In this document: positions 1,355-18,273 of the stretch, piece after piece
Position numbering within the stretch: position 1 is the stretch's first letter
How the letters are laid out: the number at the start of each line of letters is the position of its first letter
From: an uncultured Gemmatimonadaceae bacterium
GTDB lineage: Bacteria; Gemmatimonadota; Gemmatimonadetes; Gemmatimonadales; Gemmatimonadaceae
Assembly: GCA_963761305.1 (NCBI GenBank)
Contig: CAVXGK010000001.1
Location: 1,152,001-1,216,000, forward strand
Length of the DNA: 64,000 nucleotides
Direction of reading: 5' to 3'
The notes under the pieces: model-generated
The model's database searches: none
Seen by the model: the letters and a program-made list of their open reading frames with translations, nothing else
What the model was told of the DNA's origin: nothing
Position numbers and translations under genes: made by a program

Positions 1355-2101
1355 TCAACGTCTCGCGTCCCCGGCGCCGCGCTCGGGCAGTGGAATCGGC
1401 TCGGTTCGCGGCTCGCGTCGCTGCTTGATCACGACCCCGACGCCGACGAGCGCGATCAACGCGAACGCGAACCACTGGATGGCGTAGTTCAGATGCGGCC
1501 CCTCGTCGAGCGGCGGCGGAGTGAGGCGCGCCAATCGGTCCGGGGCCACCACCGAATCGCCGAGCATGATCACGTAGACGGGGGCGACGGGATACGGAAG
1601 CGCTCTCCGAACCGCGGCATAGCCGAGCCGCGTGATCACGTTCGGACGCGTCGGCGACATGGTGCCGTCGACCGACGGAAGCTCTTCCACGAAGCCCGCG
1701 AATACGGAATCCCGCTCGCGCCACCTGGCGAGATCGACCGTCTCACCGTCCGGCGCGTAGACCCAGCCGCGATCGACGATCACCGCCGTGTCGCGACCCG
1801 GCACGCGGATCGGCGTCAGGATGTTCACGCCGGGCGATCCCTTGTACGACCGCGATGCGTAGACGAGCTCGTGATCATAGTCGGGCGTCCCGCTGACGTG
1901 CGCGCGCCGAAATCGAAGCGACGCCGAATCGCCGGTGAGCGTCGCGATGTTGGCGTCGGACTGCTCCAGCCGCGACATCACGAGCGCGTTGCGCGCCCGA
2001 CGTTCGGCCAACCGATGAAGCTGCCAGAAGCCCAGCCGAACGAAGATCGCCGCGGAGATGAGGGCGAACGCGACGAACGCCGGAAGACGAAGCGTGTTCA
2101 A
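1355..2101 (-). CDS. SURF1/Shy1 family protein (heme-copper oxidase assembly)
   Basis: LGFWQLHR, VIVDRGWV and HLNYAIQWFAFA motifs; two terminal TM helices; TTG start overlaps the upstream TGA. Confidence 0.93.
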   Translation of the reverse strand: MNTLRLPAFVAFALISAAIFVRLGFWQLHRLAERRARNALVMSRLEQSDANIATLTGDSASLRFRRAHVSGTPDYDHELVYASRSYKGSPGVNILTPIRVPGRDTAVIVDRGWVYAPDGETVDLARWRERDSVFAGFVEELPSVDGTMSPTRPNVITRLGYAAVRRALPYPVAPVYVIMLGDSVVAPDRLARLTPPPLDEGPHLNYAIQWFAFALIALVGVGVVIKQRREPRTEPIPLPERGAGDARR

Positions 2102-3579
2102 CGCACGGTGACGTCGAACACGCCGGTGAGCACGTCGTGGGCGGGTTTTACCTGCACCCACATGCGGTAGCGACCGGATTTCGGGAATTCATATGGAAGC
2201 GTGAACTCGCCGCTCATGGACATGCCGGACATCGGCTCCCGGTTCAGAACGCCGGGCTTGATCCGGCCGTGCGCGGTCGTGTCGCCGGCGTCGCGCGCGC
2301 GAAACACCTGCTGCGCGGTCGTCGACACCGTGCCCATCGGATGCAGATGGATGAAGACCGACTGGTCGTCGCGCACGATCACGGCGTGCGCGGCCATGCC
2401 GAGGTACGGGTTCAACGTCGCGGGGCGCCCAAGCTGGTCGTGAATGCTGAACGCGAGATCGACCGGTGTCTTGGCGACGAGCGACGTCGACGAATTGGAC
2501 AGCGTCATCGTGTAGCCATCGCCGAGCGACGTCGTCGCACCCGCGGCGGTGAGCTCCACGCCCGGCGTGCTCGCCCACGAGTCGTCGCTGTCCGAGGGCG
2601 CGATGGTGCCGAGCATCGCGGGCAGCGTGAGCGTGTCGGTCGCGGTGAGCGCGAGGCCGTTGTCGAGCATGATGTCGGCGAACAAGCGGTAGTTCCCGGC
2701 CGGAAGCCACGGCGCCTGCCCCACGAACACGAGCGAATCCTTTTCGATCGGATGCAGATGCGCGAACACGTCCATGTTCTGCCCGCCGACCAGAAACAGG
2801 TGCATCATCTTGCCGTGATCCGGCGCGACGGGCACGAAGATCGAGCGAAACTCGGCCGTATCGCGCAGCACCACTCTCATCGTGCGGTGTGTCGAGTCGC
2901 TGGTAATGGTGACGTTGGCGATGGGGGGACGGAACATCGTCCGCTGATAGTCGGCGTCGACTGAATTCCACCAACGCGCGCCGCCGAAAAGCAGGACGGC
3001 GAGAACCGGCACCGAGATCGCGGTGATGGCGTTCGCGCGCCGCTTGCGTGCGGCGTCGATCTCCTCGCCGGGAGGTACGAGACTCTCACCCGACGCCGCG
3101 CGCACGATCGTGACGAGACCGGCGACCAACAATCCGGTGAGCGCGAGGAGAATCGTAGCGAGTCCGGGAGAGATTCCGAGGCGGCCGGTGGCGAACGAAT
3201 CCACCGGCACGATTGCCGTGCCGTTTCCACGGCGGCCGTCGACGCGCACGTAGACGCTGTACGACCCGCGCGCCATGAGCCACACCTGCCCACTGTACAG
3301 CCGCGATTGACCGGCGACGCGTGCGATCTTGTCCGGCGACGGCGATCCGGCGACACCAGTTCGCCAGAACACCGACTGAATGCTCACGCTGTCCACGTCG
3401 TCGCTCGCCGTCCGCACGATCACTTCAGCGAGACCGGGCACGACGGACGGGGGTCGCACGATGGCGCGAATCACGTACGGACCCGCCGCGCCGTCGAACG
3501 TGACGTCCGGGCTGCCGACGTGTGCCGACGCGACGACCCACGCCGCGACGGCGAATGCGATTCCCGCCCAACGCTTCAT
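2098..3579 (-). CDS. Membrane-anchored periplasmic His-rich putative copper-binding protein with PmoB-like topology
   Basis: ATG 3579 overlaps upstream TGA (ATGA). Signal peptide MKRWAGIAFAVAAWVVASA, then HVGSPD; beta-rich domain; two TM helices; two beta domains with HGKMMH...AHLHP and MAAH...IHLHP; Met-rich MSGMSMS. Confidence 0.8.
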   Translation of the reverse strand: MKRWAGIAFAVAAWVVASAHVGSPDVTFDGAAGPYVIRAIVRPPSVVPGLAEVIVRTASDDVDSVSIQSVFWRTGVAGSPSPDKIARVAGQSRLYSGQVWLMARGSYSVYVRVDGRRGNGTAIVPVDSFATGRLGISPGLATILLALTGLLVAGLVTIVRAASGESLVPPGEEIDAARKRRANAITAISVPVLAVLLFGGARWWNSVDADYQRTMFRPPIANVTITSDSTHRTMRVVLRDTAEFRSIFVPVAPDHGKMMHLFLVGGQNMDVFAHLHPIEKDSLVFVGQAPWLPAGNYRLFADIMLDNGLALTATDTLTLPAMLGTIAPSDSDDSWASTPGVELTAAGATTSLGDGYTMTLSNSSTSLVAKTPVDLAFSIHDQLGRPATLNPYLGMAAHAVIVRDDQSVFIHLHPMGTVSTTAQQVFRARDAGDTTAHGRIKPGVLNREPMSGMSMSGEFTLPYEFPKSGRYRMWVQVKPAHDVLTGVFDVTVR

Positions 3580-4694
3580 CTGCGGACTCTGGTCATCCAG
3601 CGTCCGCGCGCCAGACCGATGGCGCTCGTGGCGGTGGCGATGCCGACGGCGATCAACATCTGCACCGGAAACGGCCACGATCCGGCCGGCGGCGGATCGA
3701 ACCGGCGAGTCATCGCCTCGTACGACGGCGCCATGAAGTAAACGAAGTTGTCGGCGTTGAAGAGCGGTCCGCGCGCGACGGGATTCGTCACCAGGAACGT
3801 CGCGAACGGCCACTGCACCGCGGTGAATGCCAGCACGAACACGACGCCGACGATCGGCGCCAGCTGGAGCGTGGAGAGCCGTTTGTCGAGACGATGCAGG
3901 ACGAGGTCGACGCAGAATGCCGGCACGATGAGCAGCAGCGGGAACGACAGCGCCACCATGTGCGTGACGTGCTGGTAGATCGGGCCCAGCTTGGGCGTCG
4001 CCGGGAATTGCTCGATCAGCCACATCAGCACGAGCATGATGGCCGTGTAGAACGCCGCGGCGGCGGTGGCCGGCCAACGCAGGTTGATCGCGCGCGCCAT
4101 CGCGCCGATGGCGAGAGGGAAGACGAGCGCCGTCACCTGATAGAAAGACGGGCTGTGCATCATGCGCCGTTCGCTGAACTCGGTGAGAAACAGCGCGGCG
4201 TTCATGATTACCAGGCCGCCCGTCGCGGCGAGCAGCCAGGCGAGACGTCCGCGCGCCTCCGGCGCGGCGCGATTCTGCTGGGCGAGCGTGAGCAGCACGG
4301 CGCCCAGGCAGATCGAGAAAATGCCGAGCGCGAGAACGGCGTGCGGTGGACTCACGATCTTGACGTCGAGGCCGTAGGCATTGTGCCACCAGTTGTCGAA
4401 CGGCGCCGACGTGAGCATCGCGCCGCAGCCCCAGATGCAGAGCCACGCGCCGAGCGGGCCGCGGAAACCCCAGAAGTGCACGGACGCCGCGCGCTCGGCG
4501 TCCGTCCCGGCGAACGTGGTGTGGAGCACGACCCAGCCGGAGCTCAGTCCGGCGAGCAACCCGCCGGCCTGGATCAGCAGGTGGGCGGGCGTCCAGAACG
4601 TGTCCCGCCCGATCGACATGTGCCACGAGATGTCCCAGTACACGCCGGCCATGACGCAGAAGGCGGCGAAGGCGACCGTATAAGCGTGCTTCAT
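3576..4694 (-). CDS. Polytopic membrane protein: PmoC/AmoC-like N-half fused to PmoA/AmoA-like C-half (putative CuMMO-related)
   Basis: 372 aa; WDISWHMSIGRDTFWTPAH and FDNWWHNAYGLDVKIVSPPH; C-half RWPAT..., FPLLLIVPAFCVDLVL, QWPF, GRW resembles PmoA. The CDS is certain; the functional call is inference. Confidence 0.7.
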   Translation of the reverse strand: MKHAYTVAFAAFCVMAGVYWDISWHMSIGRDTFWTPAHLLIQAGGLLAGLSSGWVVLHTTFAGTDAERAASVHFWGFRGPLGAWLCIWGCGAMLTSAPFDNWWHNAYGLDVKIVSPPHAVLALGIFSICLGAVLLTLAQQNRAAPEARGRLAWLLAATGGLVIMNAALFLTEFSERRMMHSPSFYQVTALVFPLAIGAMARAINLRWPATAAAAFYTAIMLVLMWLIEQFPATPKLGPIYQHVTHMVALSFPLLLIVPAFCVDLVLHRLDKRLSTLQLAPIVGVVFVLAFTAVQWPFATFLVTNPVARGPLFNADNFVYFMAPSYEAMTRRFDPPPAGSWPFPVQMLIAVGIATATSAIGLARGRWMTRVRR

Positions 4695-5504
4695 TTAGAA
4701 GAGACTCATCTGTTCGCCGAGCTGCTCGGGTTCCACCGCGGCCTGCCCGAACAGCCGCTGGAGATCCCGCGCTGACTCCGGCGAGTGCCCGGCGAAGTGG
4801 TTGTTGACGTATCCGTAAACCTCGCGACCCTGTTCCGCGTACGGCCAGAGCGCCTGCGTCCACGCCTCGAGCTCGCGCCGCCGGTCGACCTGGATGCGCG
4901 AGTAGTCGACGATGCCCTGGTCCGGCCCCATCCACCTGATGTAGAGAAAATCGGCCGTTGGACGGGTCGCCAACTGCAGCATCTGCTTGCGCGGAATCCA
5001 GCGCCCGTCGCTCAGCGCGAGCGCGACGTGATGCTCGGCGAGCAGCGCGAGCACGCCGTCGTGGATCCAACCCCGCTGGCGGAACTCGACGGCGAACCGG
5101 ATGTCGCGCGGCAGCTTGGGCAGAAACTGGGCGAGGGCCGGCAGCTCGTTTGGCGCGAAGTCCGGTCCGAGTTGAACGAGAACCGGCCCGAGCTTGCGGC
5201 CGAGCTCGCGTGCCCGGTCGACGAACTCATCCATGAGGTCGTCGGCGTTACGGAGCCGATGCTCGTGGGTGATCTCCTGCGGGACCTTGAGGGCGAAAAT
5301 GAAGTCGTCCGGGGTCCGCTCGGCCCAGCCGCGAACCGTTTTGGCGGCCGGCGTGGCATAGAACGTCGAATCGACCTCAACCGTGTCGAAGCCCCGCGCG
5401 TAGACGGTCAAATAGTCGGCGGGGCGAGTACCTTCAGGATAGAAGGGTCCGACCCAGGCGTCGTAGTTCCAGCCTTGTGTCCCTATGCGAATTCTGCCCG
5501 GCAT
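4695..5504 (-). CDS. DUF72 domain protein
   Basis: IRIGTQGWNY, YARGFDTVEVDSTFY, FALKVPQEITH, AVEFRQRGW, YVNNHFAGHSP; its stop abuts the next ATG. Confidence 0.93.
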   Translation of the reverse strand: MPGRIRIGTQGWNYDAWVGPFYPEGTRPADYLTVYARGFDTVEVDSTFYATPAAKTVRGWAERTPDDFIFALKVPQEITHEHRLRNADDLMDEFVDRARELGRKLGPVLVQLGPDFAPNELPALAQFLPKLPRDIRFAVEFRQRGWIHDGVLALLAEHHVALALSDGRWIPRKQMLQLATRPTADFLYIRWMGPDQGIVDYSRIQVDRRRELEAWTQALWPYAEQGREVYGYVNNHFAGHSPESARDLQRLFGQAAVEPEQLGEQMSLF

Positions 5505-5651: not shown

Positions 5652-6215
5652 ATGCACGCGAACGATGAGAACGACAACAGCGGACCGGCAATCGATCGAA
5701 TTGAAGGCGTGTCGGGGGCGCTGGTTGGAGCAGGGATCGGCTCGGCCGCCGGGCCGGTCGGAGCGATCATCGGCAGCGTTGCGGGGGCGATCGGTGGATG
5801 GTGGGCAGGACACGCCATCATCGAGGCGGCGCGGTCGGTGAATCACGAGGACGAGGAGCATTTTCGCGAGCACTACGATTCGCTCGCGGAACGGCCGGCG
5901 GATCGAGCATACGACGACGTGCGCGGCGTGTACTACCTCGGCCAGATCGCCAGCCATCATCCCGATTTCGCGTCCGGCGAGTTCAGGGATCTGGAGGCCG
6001 AGCTCGAGAAGGGCTGGGCGACGCACGGCACCACACACGGCTCATGGGCCAGCATGCGGGATTGCGCGGCGGCCGGTTTCAACCGCGGTCGCGCGAAGCT
6101 CGACGAGATGGCGCGTCACGCGCGAGCCGAGTGGGAGAGCCGTCGCGGCGCTTCGAGCCGGCACGCACGAATGGCGAATGGCTGCCGCTCAGGACACGAA
6201 GATCTGACGCGCTAG
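5652..6215 (+). CDS. Hypothetical glycine-zipper protein
   Basis: AGGAG RBS; GALVGAGIGSAAGPVGAIIGSVAGAIGG glycine zipper followed by a helical domain. Confidence 0.75.
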   Translation: MHANDENDNSGPAIDRIEGVSGALVGAGIGSAAGPVGAIIGSVAGAIGGWWAGHAIIEAARSVNHEDEEHFREHYDSLAERPADRAYDDVRGVYYLGQIASHHPDFASGEFRDLEAELEKGWATHGTTHGSWASMRDCAAAGFNRGRAKLDEMARHARAEWESRRGASSRHARMANGCRSGHEDLTR

Positions 6216-6860
6216 CACCGGGCCGATCGATCGGTTCGAACGGCCTACGCGCAATGTGATCGGGCCGTCGAAGGGCGCCCGCGACACGACCTCGACGCGC
6301 GTGCCGGGGACGATCCCCAGCTCGGCCAAGTATCTGAGCTGTCCCGGATCGCGGTCGCCGACGCGCTCGACGCGAACGCGCCGGCCTTCGTCGACGTCGG
6401 CCAGGCTCGCCAGCGACTGTTCGCGAAGGATGCCCTCGCGGGTCGGAATCGGCGCGCCGTGCGGATCGGTCGTCGGCTCGCCGATCGCGGCGGCCATCCG
6501 ATCGATCAGCTCGTCCGACGCGGCATGCTCGAGACGCTCGGCCTCCTGGTGCACTCGGTCCCAGGGGTAGTCGAGCGCTTGCGTGAGATACGCTTCGATC
6601 ACGCGATGCCGGCGAATCGTGCGGAGCGCGGCGCGTCGGCCGTCGCGCGTGAGACGCACGCCGCGATAGCGCTCGTGCGTGATGAGGCGCTGGCCGGCCA
6701 GTCGTCGCACCATGCCGCTCACCGAGGCCGGGGCGACACCCAATTCAGCGGCGATCTCGTTGGTACCGGCCGGCTCGCCCGCGCTCTCGAGCTCGAAGAT
6801 CACCTTCAGGTAGTCTTCGGCCGGTGCGGTGAGCGGCTGGCTCGCGCGCACGGCGGTCAC
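6189..6860 (-). CDS. DtxR/MntR family metal-dependent repressor with C-terminal FeoA domain
   Basis: EDYLKVIF, RRHRVIEAYL, VHQEAERLEH, DPHGAPIP, LAELGIVPGT; GTG overlaps the USP stop. Confidence 0.95.
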   Translation of the reverse strand: MTAVRASQPLTAPAEDYLKVIFELESAGEPAGTNEIAAELGVAPASVSGMVRRLAGQRLITHERYRGVRLTRDGRRAALRTIRRHRVIEAYLTQALDYPWDRVHQEAERLEHAASDELIDRMAAAIGEPTTDPHGAPIPTREGILREQSLASLADVDEGRRVRVERVGDRDPGQLRYLAELGIVPGTRVEVVSRAPFDGPITLRVGRSNRSIGPVLARQIFVS

Positions 6861-7327
6861 AGCGGCTTCTCTGGTGGAGCGATCGGGTTCTCGCGCGGCG
6901 TTCGGCGTTCGCCGCGCACGAGCAGCACGGGCACGCGTGAGCGGTGACGTACTTCGTTCGCCACGCTGCCGTAGATGATGTCCTTGATGAATCGATGGCC
7001 GTGCGTCGACATCGCGATCAGGTCGCACGACTCGCGCGCCGCGGCGGCCGAGATCTCGCTCGCCGGATCGCCCGCGGCGAGGACGCAGTCGGCGGGCAGC
7101 CCGCTCGCGTTCAGGGCGGCGCACTGAGCCTCGATGTACTCGCGGTCCAGCCGCATCTCTTCCGATTCGCGCAGATGGAGCTGCTTCACGTTGCGCGCGG
7201 CCCATCCGTCGGCGACGTGGATGAGCACGAGCGACGCACCGCAGAACCGCGCCAGCGCGGACACGTGCTCGAGAATCGCCGAGTCGTAGTCGGAGTGCTC
7301 GAGCGGAACGAGGATGCGCTTGTACAT
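6857..7327 (-). CDS. Universal stress protein
   Basis: MYKRILVPL...LIAMSTHGH...YGSVANEVRHRSRVPVLLV; TGATG coupling to mntH. Confidence 0.93.
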   Translation of the reverse strand: MYKRILVPLEHSDYDSAILEHVSALARFCGASLVLIHVADGWAARNVKQLHLRESEEMRLDREYIEAQCAALNASGLPADCVLAAGDPASEISAAAARESCDLIAMSTHGHRFIKDIIYGSVANEVRHRSRVPVLLVRGERRTPRENPIAPPEKPL

Positions 7328-8718
7328 CAGCCGATCCCCATCCACCCGCGCACGGTTTGCGCGAGCAGCCACGCGTTCAGCGCCGCGATCGTGAGGGCGG
7401 TCGTCCACGCGACGACTTTGAGCCACGACGCGTTCACGAACGCGCCCATCTTGGCGCGATCGGACGTGAACGAGACGAGCGGAAAGACGGCGAACGAGAG
7501 CTGCAGGCTCAGAATCACCTGGCTGAGGATGAGCAACCGTGCGGTGCCGCTGGCGCCGTAGAAAATGGCGACGATGGCGGCCGGGACAATGGCGATCGCG
7601 CGCGTGATCAGCCGGCGCAGCCAGGGACGCAGCCGGATGTTGAGGAAGCCCTCCATCACGATCTGGCCGGCGAGCGTACCGGTGAGGGTCGAGTTCTGTC
7701 CCGACGCCAGGAGCGCCAGCGCGAACGCCGTGCTCGCGCCGGCGCCGAGGAGCGGCGTGAGCAGCTTGTACGCGTCCTGGATTTCGGCGACCTCGGCGTG
7801 GCCCGACGTATGGAACGTGGCCGCGGCCACGACGAGAATGGCCGCGTTGACGAAGAAGGCGAAGCTCAGCGCGATCGTCGAATCGAGAAACGCGAAGCGC
7901 ACCGCTTCGCGCCGCCCTTCGCTCGTCTCGGCGTAGCGCCGCGTCTGCACGATCGACGAATGCAGATAGAGGTTGTGCGGCATGACGGTCGCGCCGAGGA
8001 TGCCGATGGCGATGTAGAGCATCTCGGGGTCGCGGATGATGGCGGTGCTCGGCACGAACCCCTTCGCCAGTTGGCCGACGTTCGGATGCGCCAGAATGAT
8101 CTCGAACATGAAGCACAGGCCGACCGACGCAATGAGCGTGATCACCAGCGCCTCGAGCACGCGCACGCCACGATTCTGGAGCGCGAGCAGCAGCAGCACG
8201 TCGAAGCCGGTGACGAGCACGCCCACGACGATCGGCAGATGAAACAGCAGATTGAGCGCGATCGCCGAGCCGATGACTTCGGCGAGATCGCACGCGGCGA
8301 TGGCGATCTCGCAGAGGATCCAGAGCGCGGTGGCCGTGGGCTTCGAGTAGTGATCGCGGCAGGCCTGCGCGAGATCTCGGCCCGTCACGATGCCGAGCTT
8401 GGAGGCGAGCCCCTGGAGCAGCACGGCCATGATGTTCGACAGGAGCACGACACTCAGAAGCGTGTAGCCGAAGCGCGACCCGCCGGCGAGGTCGGTGGCC
8501 CAGTTGCCGGGATCCATGTACCCGACGGCGACGAGATACCCGGGTCCGGCGAACGCGAGGAGCTTGCCGAAGAACGAACGCGCGTCGATGGGGACGCTGC
8601 GGTAGACCTCCTGGAGGCTTGGCGCGACGCGCGAACGACGCCAGCCCTGCTCGGAATCGGAGTCCGGGGGCGGCTGATCGTCCTGTGGATCGGGGCGTAG
8701 GAGGCGAGGGAGAACCAA
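7327..8718 (-). CDS. mntH: Nramp family Mn2+/Fe2+ transporter
   Basis: [35 protein letters not shown]. Confidence 0.97.
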
Positions 8719-12735: not shown

Positions 12736-13480
12736 GAAAAACCTCCTCGAGCCCTCCGGCCGCCAGACCGGCGCGCGCGCGCAGTTCGTCGAGCGTTCCC
12801 TCTCCGGCGACGCGTCCCGCGCTCAGCAGCACGAACCGGTCGCACACGCGCTCGGCGTCGCCCAGTTGGTGAATCGAGAGAAAGAGCGTGCGACGCGCGG
12901 TGTGTTGGCGCAGCACCGTCATCGCGTCGCGCGTCTGCCGAAGATCGAGCCCGTCGAACGGCTCGTCGAGCATCAGCAGGGGGTGCGGCGTGAGCAGGCC
13001 GATGGCGAGCATCACGCGCCGATGCTCGCCCTTGGACAGCTCGCGCAATCGCGCGTCGATGAGCGGGTCAAGTCCGAGCGCCGACGATACGGCGTCGACC
13101 TTCGCAGGCGGAGCGCCGTGCAGACCGGCGATGAAGCGCAGTGTCCACTCGACCGACTGGTCGCCCCATGGACGAACGCCGTCGGGAACGAAAAAGAGAA
13201 GCCGCTTCCGATCGTCCGGTGAAATCGGCTTCGCGTCCCGTTCGACGACGCCAAGGGTGGTGGGTGCGACTCCGGCGAGACACTGAAAGAGCGTCGTCTT
13301 GCCTGAGCCGTTCGGACCGATCAAACCGAGAATCTCGCCCGCGCGGATCGAGAAGCTCGCGCCGCGAAGCGCCCAGAACGGTCCGAAGCGCTTTGAGAGA
13401 TTGTCGGCGGTCACGACGTCGAAGGCGCGCGCCCCCGCGTGAAGTCCCTCGCGCGCGACCGGAGCGGACGCTTGTGCCAT
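12722..13480 (-). CDS. ABC transporter ATP-binding protein
   Basis: GPNGSGKTT, LSKGE, LMLDEPFDGLD, H-loop SIHQL. Confidence 0.95.
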   Translation of the reverse strand: MAQASAPVAREGLHAGARAFDVVTADNLSKRFGPFWALRGASFSIRAGEILGLIGPNGSGKTTLFQCLAGVAPTTLGVVERDAKPISPDDRKRLLFFVPDGVRPWGDQSVEWTLRFIAGLHGAPPAKVDAVSSALGLDPLIDARLRELSKGEHRRVMLAIGLLTPHPLLMLDEPFDGLDLRQTRDAMTVLRQHTARRTLFLSIHQLGDAERVCDRFVLLSAGRVAGEGTLDELRARAGLAAGGLEEVFLALT

Positions 13481-13579
13481 TGCCGCGAATTGTCGCCGGA
13501 GGCGCGACGCGGTGCAATGGCGCGCGATCGGCGCCTCGGGTCTGGCAGCCGCGCGTCCCCGCGGCGTAGCTTGGCTGAC

Positions 13580-14317
13580 ATGCGGATTCTCCTGGCCGAG
13601 GACGACCGGCAGCTCCGACTCTCCATCGCGCGCGGCTTGCGCGAGGCCTCGTACGCGGTCGACCAGGCGGGCACGGGACCGCAGGCGCTGTTGCTCGCCT
13701 CGGCGAATCCGTACGACGCCGTGATCCTCGACGTGCTGCTGCCCGGAAAAAGCGGCGTCGTCGTGTGCTCCGACCTGCGCCGAAGCGGGAACGCGGTGCC
13801 GATTCTCGTCCTCACCGCGCTCGACGGCGTGGATCGGCGCATCGAGGGGCTCGACGCCGGCGCCGACGACTATCTCACGAAGCCGTTCGACTTCGGTGAG
13901 CTGCTGGCGCGCCTCCGGGCGCTGACGCGGCGGCGCGGCCCGGTCGCACCGGCGACGGTCGCGGTGGGCGATCTCGTGATCGACACGTTGCGCCGGACCG
14001 TGCATCGCAACCGGCGTGAGATCGCCCTCACGCGAAAGGAGTTCGCCTTCCTCCTGCATCTCGCCCGCAACGCCGGCCGCGTGATCGACCGCGCCGAGTT
14101 GATGGAGCACGTCTGGGATGATGCGCAGAACACGTACTCGAACATCATCGACGTGTACGCGAGCCGCCTGCGGCGGAAGATCGACGAAGGCGAAAAAGTG
14201 GCCCTGTTCAAGACGATTCGCGGAACGGGATTCATGCTGGACGCCCCGTCGACGCCGTCCCGGCGCGCCGCCCCCGCGCCGTTCACTCGCGCGAAGTCCA
14301 CACGCGAGCGAGGCTGA
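13580..14317 (+). CDS. OmpR-family response regulator
   Basis: MRILLAEDD, VILDVLLP, GADDYLTKPF, LRRKID, TIRGTGF. Confidence 0.96.
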   Translation: MRILLAEDDRQLRLSIARGLREASYAVDQAGTGPQALLLASANPYDAVILDVLLPGKSGVVVCSDLRRSGNAVPILVLTALDGVDRRIEGLDAGADDYLTKPFDFGELLARLRALTRRRGPVAPATVAVGDLVIDTLRRTVHRNRREIALTRKEFAFLLHLARNAGRVIDRAELMEHVWDDAQNTYSNIIDVYASRLRRKIDEGEKVALFKTIRGTGFMLDAPSTPSRRAAPAPFTRAKSTRERG

Positions 14318-14327
14318 CGAGGTCATC

Positions 14328-15833
14328 GTGGCTCGCTGGCCGTCGACGCTGCGCGCGCGTCTCTCGCTCTGGTACACCGTGCTGCTCGGCGTCCCGCTGA
14401 TCGGGCTCGCGCTCGGCTTCTACCTCCTGTTTGCGCGAATTCTGCACGAGCGTACCGACCAGTTCCTCGACGACGCGCTCACGGCGTTCTCGCGCGAACT
14501 GGTCGCCGAGCGTCGCGCGGCGCTGTCGCCGACGGCGGCGATCCGCACCACCGTGAACGAGGTGCGGTTTCAGGAATTGCGCATCGCGGTGCTCGACAGC
14601 AGCGGTGCCGTCGTGGCGACCTCTCCGGCGAGCGAGCTTGACGCGGACGCGGACCGCGAGCACGACGCCGATAGCCGGCCGCCCGACGCGCTCAGCGAGC
14701 AAGTGGCAGCCGCATTGCGTGGACGCACACCGGCGCAGTGGCGGTCGCTAACGTTGGCCAGCGCCCACGGCGACTATCTCGTGTCGGGACGTCCGCTCAC
14801 CATCGACGGGCAGCGTTTCGTGCTCACCGGCGCGTATTCGCTGCGCGACACGGAGGCCGTGGTCGACCGCGTGCGCGAGATACTCCTCCTCGCGGTGCCA
14901 CTGATTCTTCTCGGCGCGATCACCGGCGGCTACTTCCTCGCCACGCGCAATCTGGTGCCGCTCTCGGCGATGGCGGCCCGCGCGGCGGAGATCAGTGCGG
15001 CGAACCTGCAGGATCGTCTGCCGGTGGCCGGCGGCGAGGAGCTCGCCGGCTTGGCTCGCGTCGTGAATGGGCTGCTCGATCGGCTCGAGGCGTCGTTCGG
15101 GCAGCAGCGCCGGTTCATGGCCGACGCGTCACACGAATTGCGCACGCCGACGGCGATCGTGCGGACCGAAGCCGACGTCACGCTGGCACAACCGAGTCGA
15201 CCCGAGGGCGATTATCGCGCGTCGCTCGCCGTCGTGCAGGGCGCCGCGCGCCGGATGACGCGCATCGTCGACGACCTCCTGCTGCTGGCGCGTGCCGACG
15301 CGGGCGTCACCGTGGAGCACCGCGAGCACGTCTACCTCGAGGAGGTCGTGCACGACGTCACCAGCGACGTGCGGCGGCTGGCCGAGAGTCGACGCGTGCG
15401 CGTGGAACTGGCGTCGGTGGTCGACGCGCCGATTTTCGCCGACGCCGATTTGGTCGGACGCCTCCTCCTCAATCTGCTCGACAACGCGATCAAGCACTCC
15501 CCCGAGGGGAGCGCGGTGCGGATCGAGATGGCGCGGCGCGGAAACACGTGCGAAGTGCGCGTCGCCGACGCAGGCAGCGGCATTCCAGCCGACGTGCAGC
15601 CCAAGGTCTTCGAGCGCTTCTTCCGGGCCGACGCGTCGCGGCTGGCAGGCGACCAACGGACCGCGGGTGAGCTCGAGCCTGCCGGGGCGAGCGGCGCGGG
15701 GCTCGGACTGGCCATCGCGCGGCGCATCGCCGAGGTGCACGGGGGCCGGCTCGATCTGGTCGAATCGCGGCCGGGGCGAACCGAATTTTGCCTCTCCCTG
15801 CCGCTCGATCCCGGGATCGCGCCCGCGGGCTGA
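14328..15833 (+). CDS. Sensor histidine kinase (HAMP-HisKA-HATPase, CusS/CzcS-like layout)
   Basis: FMADASHELRTP, NLLDNAIKH, DAGSGI, FERFFR, GAGLGLAI. Confidence 0.95.
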   Translation: MARWPSTLRARLSLWYTVLLGVPLIGLALGFYLLFARILHERTDQFLDDALTAFSRELVAERRAALSPTAAIRTTVNEVRFQELRIAVLDSSGAVVATSPASELDADADREHDADSRPPDALSEQVAAALRGRTPAQWRSLTLASAHGDYLVSGRPLTIDGQRFVLTGAYSLRDTEAVVDRVREILLLAVPLILLGAITGGYFLATRNLVPLSAMAARAAEISAANLQDRLPVAGGEELAGLARVVNGLLDRLEASFGQQRRFMADASHELRTPTAIVRTEADVTLAQPSRPEGDYRASLAVVQGAARRMTRIVDDLLLLARADAGVTVEHREHVYLEEVVHDVTSDVRRLAESRRVRVELASVVDAPIFADADLVGRLLLNLLDNAIKHSPEGSAVRIEMARRGNTCEVRVADAGSGIPADVQPKVFERFFRADASRLAGDQRTAGELEPAGASGAGLGLAIARRIAEVHGGRLDLVESRPGRTEFCLSLPLDPGIAPAG

Positions 15834-15933: not shown

Positions 15934-18273
15934 ATGAAGCGACTCTTGTTTGCAGTGCTCCTGCTGGTCGTTCCCGTCGCGGCGCGCGCGCAGGTCACCG
16001 TGCGCGGCACGGTCGTCGACAAACAGACCGGCAATCCGGTGGCGAACGCCATCGTCACGGTGACCGGTACGACGACGGCCGCCGTGGCGAACGATTCCGG
16101 CCGGTTCGTCCTCACGTCGTCCAGCGCCGTCACGAGCCTCACCGTGACGCGCGTCGGCTACGCGGAAAAGGTCGTATCGATCACCACCGTCGAAGCGGCG
16201 CTGCGCGTCGAGATGACCGTCGCGACGGTCGAGCTACCCGGCGTCCACATCGTCGCGTCCAACCCCGCGCCGTCGACGGCGGTGCTGTCGCAGAGCGACT
16301 TGAATCGCGCCAGCGGTCTCAGTCTGTCAGACGCGATCAACACGATTCCCGGCGTGTTCATGCAGTCCCGCACGCCGTACGGCGGCGCGCACATCAACAT
16401 TCGCGGCTACTACCCGAGCGTGAGCGGCAACAGCCCGAACTCCAACGGCGAAGGCTATTCCGTTTTCCTCAACTACATCCCGATCACCGACGCCACCGGC
16501 ACGACGGTGATGGACGACATCGACTTCTCGACGCTCGGCAAGGTCGAGGTGATCAAGGGCCCCGCATCGAGCCTGTACGGTTCGTTCATCGGCGGCGCCG
16601 TGAACCTGTCGACGGCGCGCCCGACGCCGAATCAGACGAGCGCGATGCAGCAAGTGCTCACCGGCGGCGACGGGATCATGCGCACCAACTCGACGCTGAT
16701 GGGCGCCAGCGAGAACTCGGATTACGTCATCAACTACGGATTCCAGACCGACACGTCGTGGCGCCGGCACAGCCAGTCGCAAAAGACCTACGTGCGTGCG
16801 AGCGGCGACTTCGGCGTCGCCGCCAACCAGACGGTGTCGGCGTACTTCTCCTACAACCGGTCGCTCGAGGATCTCGCCGGTGAAATCGACAGCGTGGACT
16901 TCTACGCACGGCGGCCGGTGAGCGATTCGTTCTACGTCTCGAACAACTCGCACATCCAGATCACGAGCTGGTTCACCGGCGCGACGGACAACTTCCACAT
17001 CAACGACCACTTCAACAACCTGACGACGGTGTTCGTCGGCAGCCGGTTCTCCGATCAGCCGATCGCCCACGGCTTCACCGACGCGACGCAGCTCAACGGC
17101 GGCGGCCGCACGCAGTTCGGCTACATCGGCCAGCTCGGCGACGCGACGGTGAACGGCGTCCTTGGCGGCATGATGCAGCGGTCGAACGTCACCAGCGCCG
17201 GCGCCAACATCGGCCACACGGCGCCGTTCGCCGAAACGCCGAGCACCACCGAGAACTTCGCGCAGAACTTCTACCTGTTCTCCGAATGGACGTTCGGTCT
17301 GCCCTCGCAGATCACCGTGACCGGTGGCGGGTCGCTGATCTACGACACCTGGCAGGTGCACAACCTGCTGGTGGCCCAGAAGATCGCCGACACGATTCCG
17401 CCGACGCAGTGGCTCACCAAGGACTTCAAGCCGACCTTCGCGCCGCGCTTGTCGGTGACCAAGGGCCTCGGCTCCGCCGGATCGCTCTACGCCAGCTGGA
17501 GCACGGGTTTCGCGCCGCCGCTGCTCAACAGCATCACGGCCAGCAACGGCACCGTCAACACGAATCTCAAGCCGGAACGCGCCACCCAGTACGAGGTCGG
17601 CGCCCAGGGCACGCTGTTTTCGCGGCTCGGCGGCCAGATTTCGCTGTTCAACATCGACAATACGAACAAGCTGATCCAGCAATCGGTGGGCGGCGTGACG
17701 TCGACGACCAACGTCGGCGAGCAGCGCAACCGCGGCGCCGAACTGTCGGCGAGCTTCCTCGCGATCTCGGATTCCGCCGCCCCGCTGTCGACGCTTCGGC
17801 CGTGGGTGTCGTACACGTACACCGACGCGAAGTACCTCAGCTACTTCAGCGACAACAACAACACCGCGGCGACGGTGAACTTCTCCGGCAACGCGGTGGC
17901 GCGCGTCCCGAAGACGATGTACGCCCTCGGCATCGACGCGGCCTCGAACTCGGGCCTGTACTTCAATAGCACCTACAACTTCGTCGACCGCGTCCCGGTG
18001 ACGTTCGACAACTCGACGTGGGTGCATTCGTACAGCCTGCTCGGCGCGAAGATCGGCTATCGCAACACGATCAGCCACCGGTGGCTGCTCAACGCCTACG
18101 TCGGCGGCGACAACCTGACGAATCAGACGTACTACACGTTCCTGTTCGTCGGACCGAACTACGCGGGTCTCGCGCAGGCGCAGGACGGCGGGTCGGGTGA
18201 CGGCTACATCCTCCCCGGCAACCCGAACCACGTGTTCTACGCCGGTGTGAATCTTTCGTACATCATCAAATAG
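15934..18273 (+). CDS. TonB-dependent receptor with N-terminal carboxypeptidase-regulatory-like domain
   Basis: Signal peptide; VRGTVVDKQTG; plug VEVIKGPASSLYG; NLKPERATQYEVG; C-terminal beta strand. Confidence 0.95.
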   Translation: MKRLLFAVLLLVVPVAARAQVTVRGTVVDKQTGNPVANAIVTVTGTTTAAVANDSGRFVLTSSSAVTSLTVTRVGYAEKVVSITTVEAALRVEMTVATVELPGVHIVASNPAPSTAVLSQSDLNRASGLSLSDAINTIPGVFMQSRTPYGGAHINIRGYYPSVSGNSPNSNGEGYSVFLNYIPITDATGTTVMDDIDFSTLGKVEVIKGPASSLYGSFIGGAVNLSTARPTPNQTSAMQQVLTGGDGIMRTNSTLMGASENSDYVINYGFQTDTSWRRHSQSQKTYVRASGDFGVAANQTVSAYFSYNRSLEDLAGEIDSVDFYARRPVSDSFYVSNNSHIQITSWFTGATDNFHINDHFNNLTTVFVGSRFSDQPIAHGFTDATQLNGGGRTQFGYIGQLGDATVNGVLGGMMQRSNVTSAGANIGHTAPFAETPSTTENFAQNFYLFSEWTFGLPSQITVTGGGSLIYDTWQVHNLLVAQKIADTIPPTQWLTKDFKPTFAPRLSVTKGLGSAGSLYASWSTGFAPPLLNSITASNGTVNTNLKPERATQYEVGAQGTLFSRLGGQISLFNIDNTNKLIQQSVGGVTSTTNVGEQRNRGAELSASFLAISDSAAPLSTLRPWVSYTYTDAKYLSYFSDNNNTAATVNFSGNAVARVPKTMYALGIDAASNSGLYFNSTYNFVDRVPVTFDNSTWVHSYSLLGAKIGYRNTISHRWLLNAYVGGDNLTNQTYYTFLFVGPNYAGLAQAQDGGSGDGYILPGNPNHVFYAGVNLSYIIK

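Follow-up and report, generated by a model that had tools for sequence, protein, structure and literature searches.

The systems closest to the locus described here are the CuMMOs pMMO and AMO. In PmoC of M. capsulatus, the ligands of CuC are presumably D156/H160/H173 and those of CuD N227/H231/H245. The corresponding residues of N. briensis AmoC are reported as D134/H138/H151 and N205/H209/H223 (PMC12801151), and in PmoC L101 they are D129/H133/H146 and N200/H204/H218; both agree with the steps of +4/+13 and +4/+14 that the original prediction had given for PmoC. Whether CuC, CuD or both form the active site is described as unsettled, and the enzymes as resisting recombinant study, in PMC12801151 and PMC13058606. 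In AMO, TM1 of AmoA together with TM3-6 of AmoC is reported to form a channel below the dicopper site (PMC12804982), and the subunits are encoded by three separate genes, xmoCAB (PMC6215863).

In the window (the whole 64 kb stretch of DNA that was analysed) we observed, in contrast, two genes, with the C-like and A-like parts joined in one frame. On the basis of the structural models, gene A is predicted not to be a PmoC but to join C and A in one chain, next to a fixed partner, a reading that was absent from the original prediction. Because it combines both triads, a predicted A-like half and a histidine-rich partner gene, gene A probably belongs to a widespread and so far unstudied group related to the pMMO/AMO copper enzymes. 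The features of the locus are the following.

3576-4694, minus strand: gene A, a 372-codon ORF (372 aa) with ten predicted membrane helices
4269..4694, minus strand: residues 1-142 of gene A, a PmoC/AmoC-like four-helix bundle made of two related helical hairpins
4581..4634, minus strand: triad 1, D21-H25-H38, CuC-equivalent, with the conserved D31 (4604-4602)
4341..4397, minus strand: triad 2, D100-H104-H118, at the CuD position with Asp for Asn, and with the conserved D110 (4367-4365)
3579..4268, minus strand: residues 143-372 of gene A, predicted PmoA/AmoA fold
2098-3579, minus strand: gene B, 493 aa, with an ATGA overlap with the gene A stop
3187..3522, minus strand: mature N-terminal domain of gene B (H20 onward), nearest to CrdA and CopC/YtkA-like proteins, without an H-x-H pair
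2101..2922, minus strand: C-terminal repeats of gene B, with invariant H255/H260/H274/H276 and M395/H398/H411/H413
1355-2101, minus strand: SURF1-family gene whose TTG start overlaps the gene B stop, a lineage-restricted neighbour outside the core pair
4695-5501, minus strand: DUF72 gene, its stop abutting the gene A start
6189-8718, minus strand: genes for an Nramp/MntH transporter, a universal stress protein and a DtxR/MntR regulator, lying 1.5 kb upstream of gene A

The span originally flagged as holding both PmoC copper-site triads is the 5' part of the gene A ORF. The six residues and both spacings were confirmed on its translation, with D21 at 4634-4632, H25 at 4622-4620 and H38 at 4583-4581 (steps +4/+13), and D100 at 4397-4395, H104 at 4385-4383 and H118 at 4343-4341 (steps +4/+14), all on the minus strand. 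When the 64 kb window was scanned in six frames with the strict motif [DN]xxWH-x9/10-[TS]PxH, the two triads were the sole 2 matches; a looser motif was present in 4 open stretches of the 5.2 Mb genome, and twice in gene A alone. Since the motif is confined to these two sites in the window, the double triad is not a product of chance. Single-sequence searches of Pfam, NCBIfam and PDB with gene A gave no match, and the ESM Atlas returned unnamed clusters only. The AF2 model of gene A (pLDDT 96.3, pTM 0.94) places the ligands at the end of helix 1, the start of helix 2, the end of helix 3 and the start of helix 4, which, as topology only, would bring them to one membrane face, probably the periplasmic one.

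The original prediction depended on the conservation of the six ligands in homologs, which we evaluated in the top 150 phmmer representatives out of 1,954, gathered without a word index; 80 loci whose search patterns included the motifs were excluded from this count. Among the rows covering each site, triad 1 was kept in 105/105 (D21), 102/105 (H25) and 108/108 (H38), and triad 2 in 140/142 (D100), 135/142 (H104) and 140/145 (H118), so that retention in distant homologs reaches 93-100%. In contrast, four other His of gene A were conserved in 3/118, 1/121, 20/107 and 9/95. The extra conserved residues include one buried Met (M93, 80/97) and no Cys, and a chain of conserved Met, Cys or His across the membrane was not found in gene A. 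The family comprises at least 7,976 clusters, the 1,954 phmmer representatives being those at E up to 0.001. Close relatives of gene A are labelled Gemmatimonadaceae, and other loci were found in Acidobacteriota, Binataceae, Kofleriaceae, Eisenbacteria and others, as well as on one Bacteroidota plasmid; the cultured Chondrinema litorale has gene A and gene B. Within the host phylum, 71 of 301 genomes carry gene A. The family is undescribed in the literature searched, which took in few subscription papers; members could be contained in the 679-sequence xmoC network of PMC13058606 and in the data of PMC9038741. In a subclade formed by P0219, P0245 and P0271, the changes H25E, H104Q and H118Q point to a different metal site or to none.

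For comparison with the C subunit, we assembled a reference set of true CuMMO sequences from plasmids and Binatota genomes (13 C, 10 A and 10 B, after one duplicate C was dropped). When PDB sequences were searched with a 100-row profile of the gene A family, the first five matches were AmoC/PmoC, with E 2.7e-4 to 7.8e-3, and the sixth had E 1.5. Gene A itself was below the cut-off of Pfam AmoC (PF04896), and 15 of 100 family members matched it at E up to 0.1. The hhalign comparison of residues 1-142 with the C profile gave 94.7% (E 6e-8) over 102 columns with the six ligands in register and 22% identity, versus under 1% for the cross and reversed controls. All 13 single C sequences scored 32-46, compared with a maximum of 27 among 134 control membrane proteins of the host genome. 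In this alignment, the likeness to the PmoC family that had been read by eye was borne out: D21/H25/H38 fall on D129/H133/H146 of L101, the CuC Asp-His-His set, and the W-H, R-D and T-P-x-H residues of the first half are shared. These sequence comparisons make it very probable that residues 1-142 are homologous to the metal bundle of PmoC/AmoC. What is held in common with PF04896 proteins (9leg_C, 9pxf_G, 9cl6_C, 6cxh_C, 7s4l_C) is the four-helix bundle, both ligand sets in register, the Asp-x3-His-x12-His pattern, the +4/+14 second set and an acid at +6 after each first His; gene A differs in having Asp for the CuD Asn, a fused A-like domain and halves that are far more alike. The two helices found at the N terminus of bacterial C are absent as well; archaeal AmoC is reported to obtain them from another subunit. 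PmoC is missing from the fold lists described below because each entry is represented there by a single chain, which for every pMMO entry was the A chain.

The replacement of the CuD Asn by Asp, pointed out in the original prediction, proved to be a family-wide trait: Asp occupies this position in 95/97 and 120/120 members of two clades, whereas Asn is present in 13/13 true C sequences; both His and the +14 step are kept. In N. briensis AMO, the CuD Asn lies >3 A from copper (PMC12801151), so the change to Asp need not abolish binding. The suggestion of an ancestral internal duplication was supported as well, since the two halves scored 26 against each other (E 2e-5) in the gene A clade and 53 in the actinobacterial one (E 4e-11); the halves of PmoC scored 13 (E 0.05), and reversed cross controls gave 8-14. 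The first half of the bundle scored 51 against the CuC half of PmoC, while the second half scored 19 against the CuC half and 11 against the CuD half (reversed controls, 8-14). The assignment of the second triad to CuD therefore stands as to register, the +14 step and the acid at +6, but not as to half-level similarity, which is at control level; because the second half resembles the CuC half more than the CuD half, the equivalence is positional only.

The remaining part of gene A was compared with known folds, and the A-subunit fold appeared in the predicted model as a fused domain. The six top rows of a Foldseek search with the gene A model were PmoA/AmoA chains (E 0.014-0.06), and VIA-align, run against 994 chains, ranked eleven PmoA/AmoA chains first. 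Over 187-204 residues these had Z 11.6-12.7 and an rmsd of about 4, with model residues 143-372 aligned to about 17-245 of the chain, almost the whole of PmoA; the next unrelated row had Z 8.7. Values of Z under about 13 can reflect an arrangement that is common among helical proteins. A wide fold search placed cytochrome b561 first (Z 11.3, residues 1-171) and an ECF S-component sixth (Z 9.7, residues 147-372), its listed pMMO representative scoring Z 7.8. Cytochrome b561 has heme-ligand His on both faces, whereas the conserved His of gene A are modelled at helix ends of one face. The ECF S-components (5edl, 5d0y, 4rfs) resemble the predicted fold of residues 147-372 with Z 7.3-9.7, lower than PmoA. 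Sequence similarity to PmoA was weak: hhalign gave 50% (E 1.6e-4, 191 colinear columns), and 2/10 single PmoA sequences exceeded the best of 134 controls. Taking model and sequence together, residues 143-372 are probably homologous to PmoA/AmoA. Compared with PF02461 proteins (6cxh_B, 4phz_B, 7s4h_B, 9cl6_B, 9leg_A), the predicted fold is shared over about 200 residues, but the structural alignments show 11-17% identity, the A-like half is in the C chain, and it has conserved H180 (92/100) and H245 (71/98), which are absent from PmoA, along with E172 (66/100). The model suggests that the loops carrying H180, H245 and E172 are on the ligand face. In the fusion, the two parts come in the same order as the C and A genes, and the first A helix would lie adjacent to the bundle, as in the AMO channel.

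From these results, we favour the interpretation that genes A and B encode a copper-dependent redox enzyme that acts on a membrane-soluble substrate and stands apart from the defined CuMMO family, and give it a probability of about 45%. As the CuD Asn, the CuB pair and the three-gene layout are all missing, the two genes are not filed as a CuMMO; gene A may work like, or descend with, the CuMMO core. The two Asp-His-His sets would bind one or two Cu ions, and the first helix of the A-like half would seal a hydrophobic channel below them, like AmoA TM1 in AMO. O2 would be activated at the bundle with electrons drawn from the membrane, by analogy from quinol, and a lipid chain, a quinone, an aromatic or a small hydrocarbon could be the substrate; the role would be to support neither methanotrophy nor nitrification. 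The N-terminal His domain and the His/Met repeats of gene B would gather copper and load the site. Catalysis is favoured because gene A retains the two halves of the CuMMO membrane core and shows, on one face, a pair of adjacent ligand sets together with additional conserved carboxylates, and the paired sites with two extra Asp, one Met and no Cys suggest a catalytic site rather than a transport path. As in xmoCAB, C and A are followed by an exported protein that starts with His and has two helices. The presence of CopD in 44/67 carrier genomes and of a heme-copper oxidase in the host also counts for this reading. Against the redox enzyme count the QM results for archaeal AMO, which give a higher barrier for ammonia hydroxylation at the Asp-ligated CuC than at CuD (bioRxiv 10.64898/2026.08.31.748207), both sites of gene A being Asp-ligated. 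The weak sequence similarity of the A-like half and the resemblance of gene B to CrdA/CopC, without the CuB H-x-H, also weaken it, as does the neighbourhood, in which no shared pathway or reductase gene was found among 133 neighbours of the two-gene clade (164 picked, 46 loci).

A further point against the redox enzyme is that sites rich in Asp may favour Zn, Fe or Mn. A bundle with four conserved Asp and four His could form a symmetric, carboxylate-rich two-metal site of a membrane hydrolase, desaturase or lipid-modifying enzyme, and acyl-chain handling is hinted at by ligand-less paralogues whose neighbours are an acyl-carrier-like ORF or SDR and AMP-binding genes; we regard this as unlikely, since the partner gene B looks copper-specific and the actinobacterial relatives lie among copper genes. 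The paralogues L105:4577-5644 and L106 (G302:C81 8849-9580) keep the A-like half without the metal ligands and are directly before the acyl-carrier-like ORF, and L111:6858-7997, in which the A-like half is kept and the ligands are partly lost, is before SDR, AMP-binding and glycosyltransferase genes; gene B is missing from all of these.

The partner gene was found after gene A in 78 of the best 80 of 581 loci by BLAST, or in 79 when a start at a contig end is counted, and the last contig ends inside gene A. Among the 301 genomes of the phylum, 71 carry A, 69 carry B and 67 carry both, with 16 expected if the two were independent, although kin are non-independent; these tallies include the unpublished genome G335. 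A natural A-B fusion was sought among three longer hits and rejected, because two (A then B) have frameshift-like junctions and one has an unrelated tail. In L117:6686-13794, a second copy in G187, four genes lie between A and B, among them those for a GMC oxidoreductase and a peptidase of family C92.

The gene B product has a signal peptide, a His at mature position +1 (76/79 loci; Asp in the other 3, L003, L004 and L006), an Ig-like domain, a pair of membrane helices and two Ig-like repeats rich in His and Met, a layout reproduced by its predicted model (pLDDT 91), in which the two helices are long; the repeats match each other at 92% (E 7e-7). No match was obtained for gene B in single-sequence searches of Pfam, NCBIfam and PDB, and the ESM Atlas gave a YtkA-like lead under 0.9. 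The best match of its N-domain in sequence plus fold was H. pylori CrdA (profile E 0.0097; fold Z 9.8, rmsd 2.8, 100 residues); CopC reached Z 8.3, among generic matches, and PF04234 was detected in 1/57 members (E 0.026). CrdA (9ll2), CopC (5icu) and YtkA-like proteins are closest to this domain, with Z 8-10 tied with many generic Ig/FN3 domains; gene B differs from CrdA and CopC in being membrane-anchored and multi-domain. Its likeness to PmoB/AmoB (PF04744) is in layout only: a signal peptide, a mature +1 His, a beta domain, two helices, more beta domains and the last place in the gene order. Homology to PmoB was considered but found no support, as the profiles show no similarity (0.1-8.6%, reversed control 2.5%) and the H-x-H pair that holds the CuB ligands is present in 0/57 gene B members versus 10/10 PmoB; gene B has three Ig-like domains, and PmoB was not present in the top 50 of three fold lists for the whole 474-residue model, which were filled by Ig/FN3 domains and may conceal a PmoB-like match.

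The affinity to CrdA by profile and fold, the CopC-like character of the N-domain and the invariant His/Met repeats would also suit a complex that handles copper and does not activate O2. Gene B would then collect periplasmic copper and pass it to the gene A bundle, which would buffer, reduce or relay it for uptake, tolerance or the loading of cuproenzymes such as a heme-copper oxidase; we consider this nearly as likely as the redox enzyme. The resemblance of the A-like half to ECF S-components fits such a role, but genes for ECF energising partners, which may lie at other loci, were not found among the 133 scanned neighbours, and gene A lacks a conserved transmembrane Met/Cys/His chain. SURF1, coupled downstream here and present in 21 of the 80 loci, would agree with it; DUF72 (24), SURF1 and acyl-CoA dehydrogenase (21) neighbours represent local synteny. 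Against copper handling, the 133 neighbours of the two-gene clade contain one copper-named protein, a CusB-like copper-efflux protein. As for the CopC/CopD pair, gene A is not of the CopD family (no Pfam match, and no CopD in the list of 25 families obtained with 100 members), and separate CopD matches are present in the host. CopD occurs in 44/67 carrier genomes versus 165/234 others; it is rarer in carriers than in non-carriers in family f2 (9/30 versus 55/95, kin being non-independent), which speaks for copper handling, but 35/37 carriers outside f2 keep it (tallies that include the unpublished G250, G310 and G335), so that a general replacement of CopD by the gene A pair was discarded.

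In the actinobacterial relatives, among whose carriers is Streptomyces, the protein is one chain of about 480 aa. Both triads are present in 119/120, and 119/120 have a signal-peptidase-like site within the chain, after which come His-Asp-Pro-Gly, a beta domain and a final helix. Their bundle matched that of gene A at 99.7% in profile comparison, and their middle part matched the A-half of the gene A family at 18% (E 0.0013) and gave no match to the PmoA profile (0.09%); their beta domain compared with gene B at 2.7%, near the reversed control. These comparisons suggest that the actinobacterial proteins could be a full C-A-B single chain. Of five actinobacterial plasmid loci, three are surrounded by evident copper genes (multicopper oxidase, cupredoxin, CopC, oxidase assembly, P-type ATPase), one is so weakly, and one, whose copy looks broken, not at all. 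This setting is in line with copper handling, but a copper enzyme would be expected near copper supply genes too. The chains L092:7001-8428, L093:6965-8410, L096:6947-8380 and L095:6749-8599 have a near-perfect internal repeat; three have the internal His-start beta domain, and L095 is of a longer type. Several of these chains are found in copper islands on plasmids.

A further reading is that genes A and B form a functional monooxygenase of methane, ammonia or short alkanes, and so a true though very divergent CuMMO in which gene B replaces PmoB. Both triads and the A-like half are retained, and the identities of 22% (C) and 11-17% (A) are like those between bacterial and archaeal CuMMOs, for which 16.5% and 16.1% are reported (PMC9038741); verrucomicrobial methanotrophs are described as being without CuB ligands (PMC13058606). 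We find this reading very improbable. The host genome, which is 93% complete and has one gene A copy, yielded no canonical pmoC, pmoA or pmoB; no true B was detected by phmmer (best E 0.96) or by PF04744, with controls also silent for this model. No PQQ alcohol dehydrogenase exceeded the TIGR03075 cut-off (best 301 bits versus 480), and PF13447 gave no match, its controls being silent too. Moreover, oxidation pathway genes were absent among the scanned neighbours, and a separate canonical C subunit accompanies gene A in 3/5 Binatota genomes. At L085:1362-5966 and L086:4182-8790, Binatota genomes with the gene pair also have a canonical C-A-B operon; the ORF ahead of it resembles SCO on visual inspection. 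No viral pmoC loci were found with a Binatota query.

A bolder view, which we hold tentatively, is that the family is a missing sister lineage of the CuMMOs, with a single-chain C-A core and a symmetric two-copper site near the ancestral hairpin. It would activate O2 for a substrate new to the superfamily in thousands of soil and sediment bacteria, either as a two-gene module or as an actinobacterial single chain with a cleavable His-start beta domain. The gene A family indicates that the C bundle originated as a duplicated hairpin, and it could serve as an outgroup for the CuMMO phylogeny, which is rooted on archaeal AMO in PMC6215863. A one- or two-gene relative with both ligand sets could also be an expressible model for comparing Asn with Asp and for copper cooperation. 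As the family is large and unnamed, an oxidation or copper pathway is being overlooked in soil genomes.

Because DUF72 abuts gene A and SURF1 overlaps gene B, the local transcript probably includes four genes. The Nramp, stress protein and DtxR set found upstream recurs in about 5/80 loci. Elsewhere in the window, a long ORF at 15934-18273 on the plus strand looks by eye like a TonB-dependent outer-membrane receptor, and is preceded by a two-component pair at 13439-15833.
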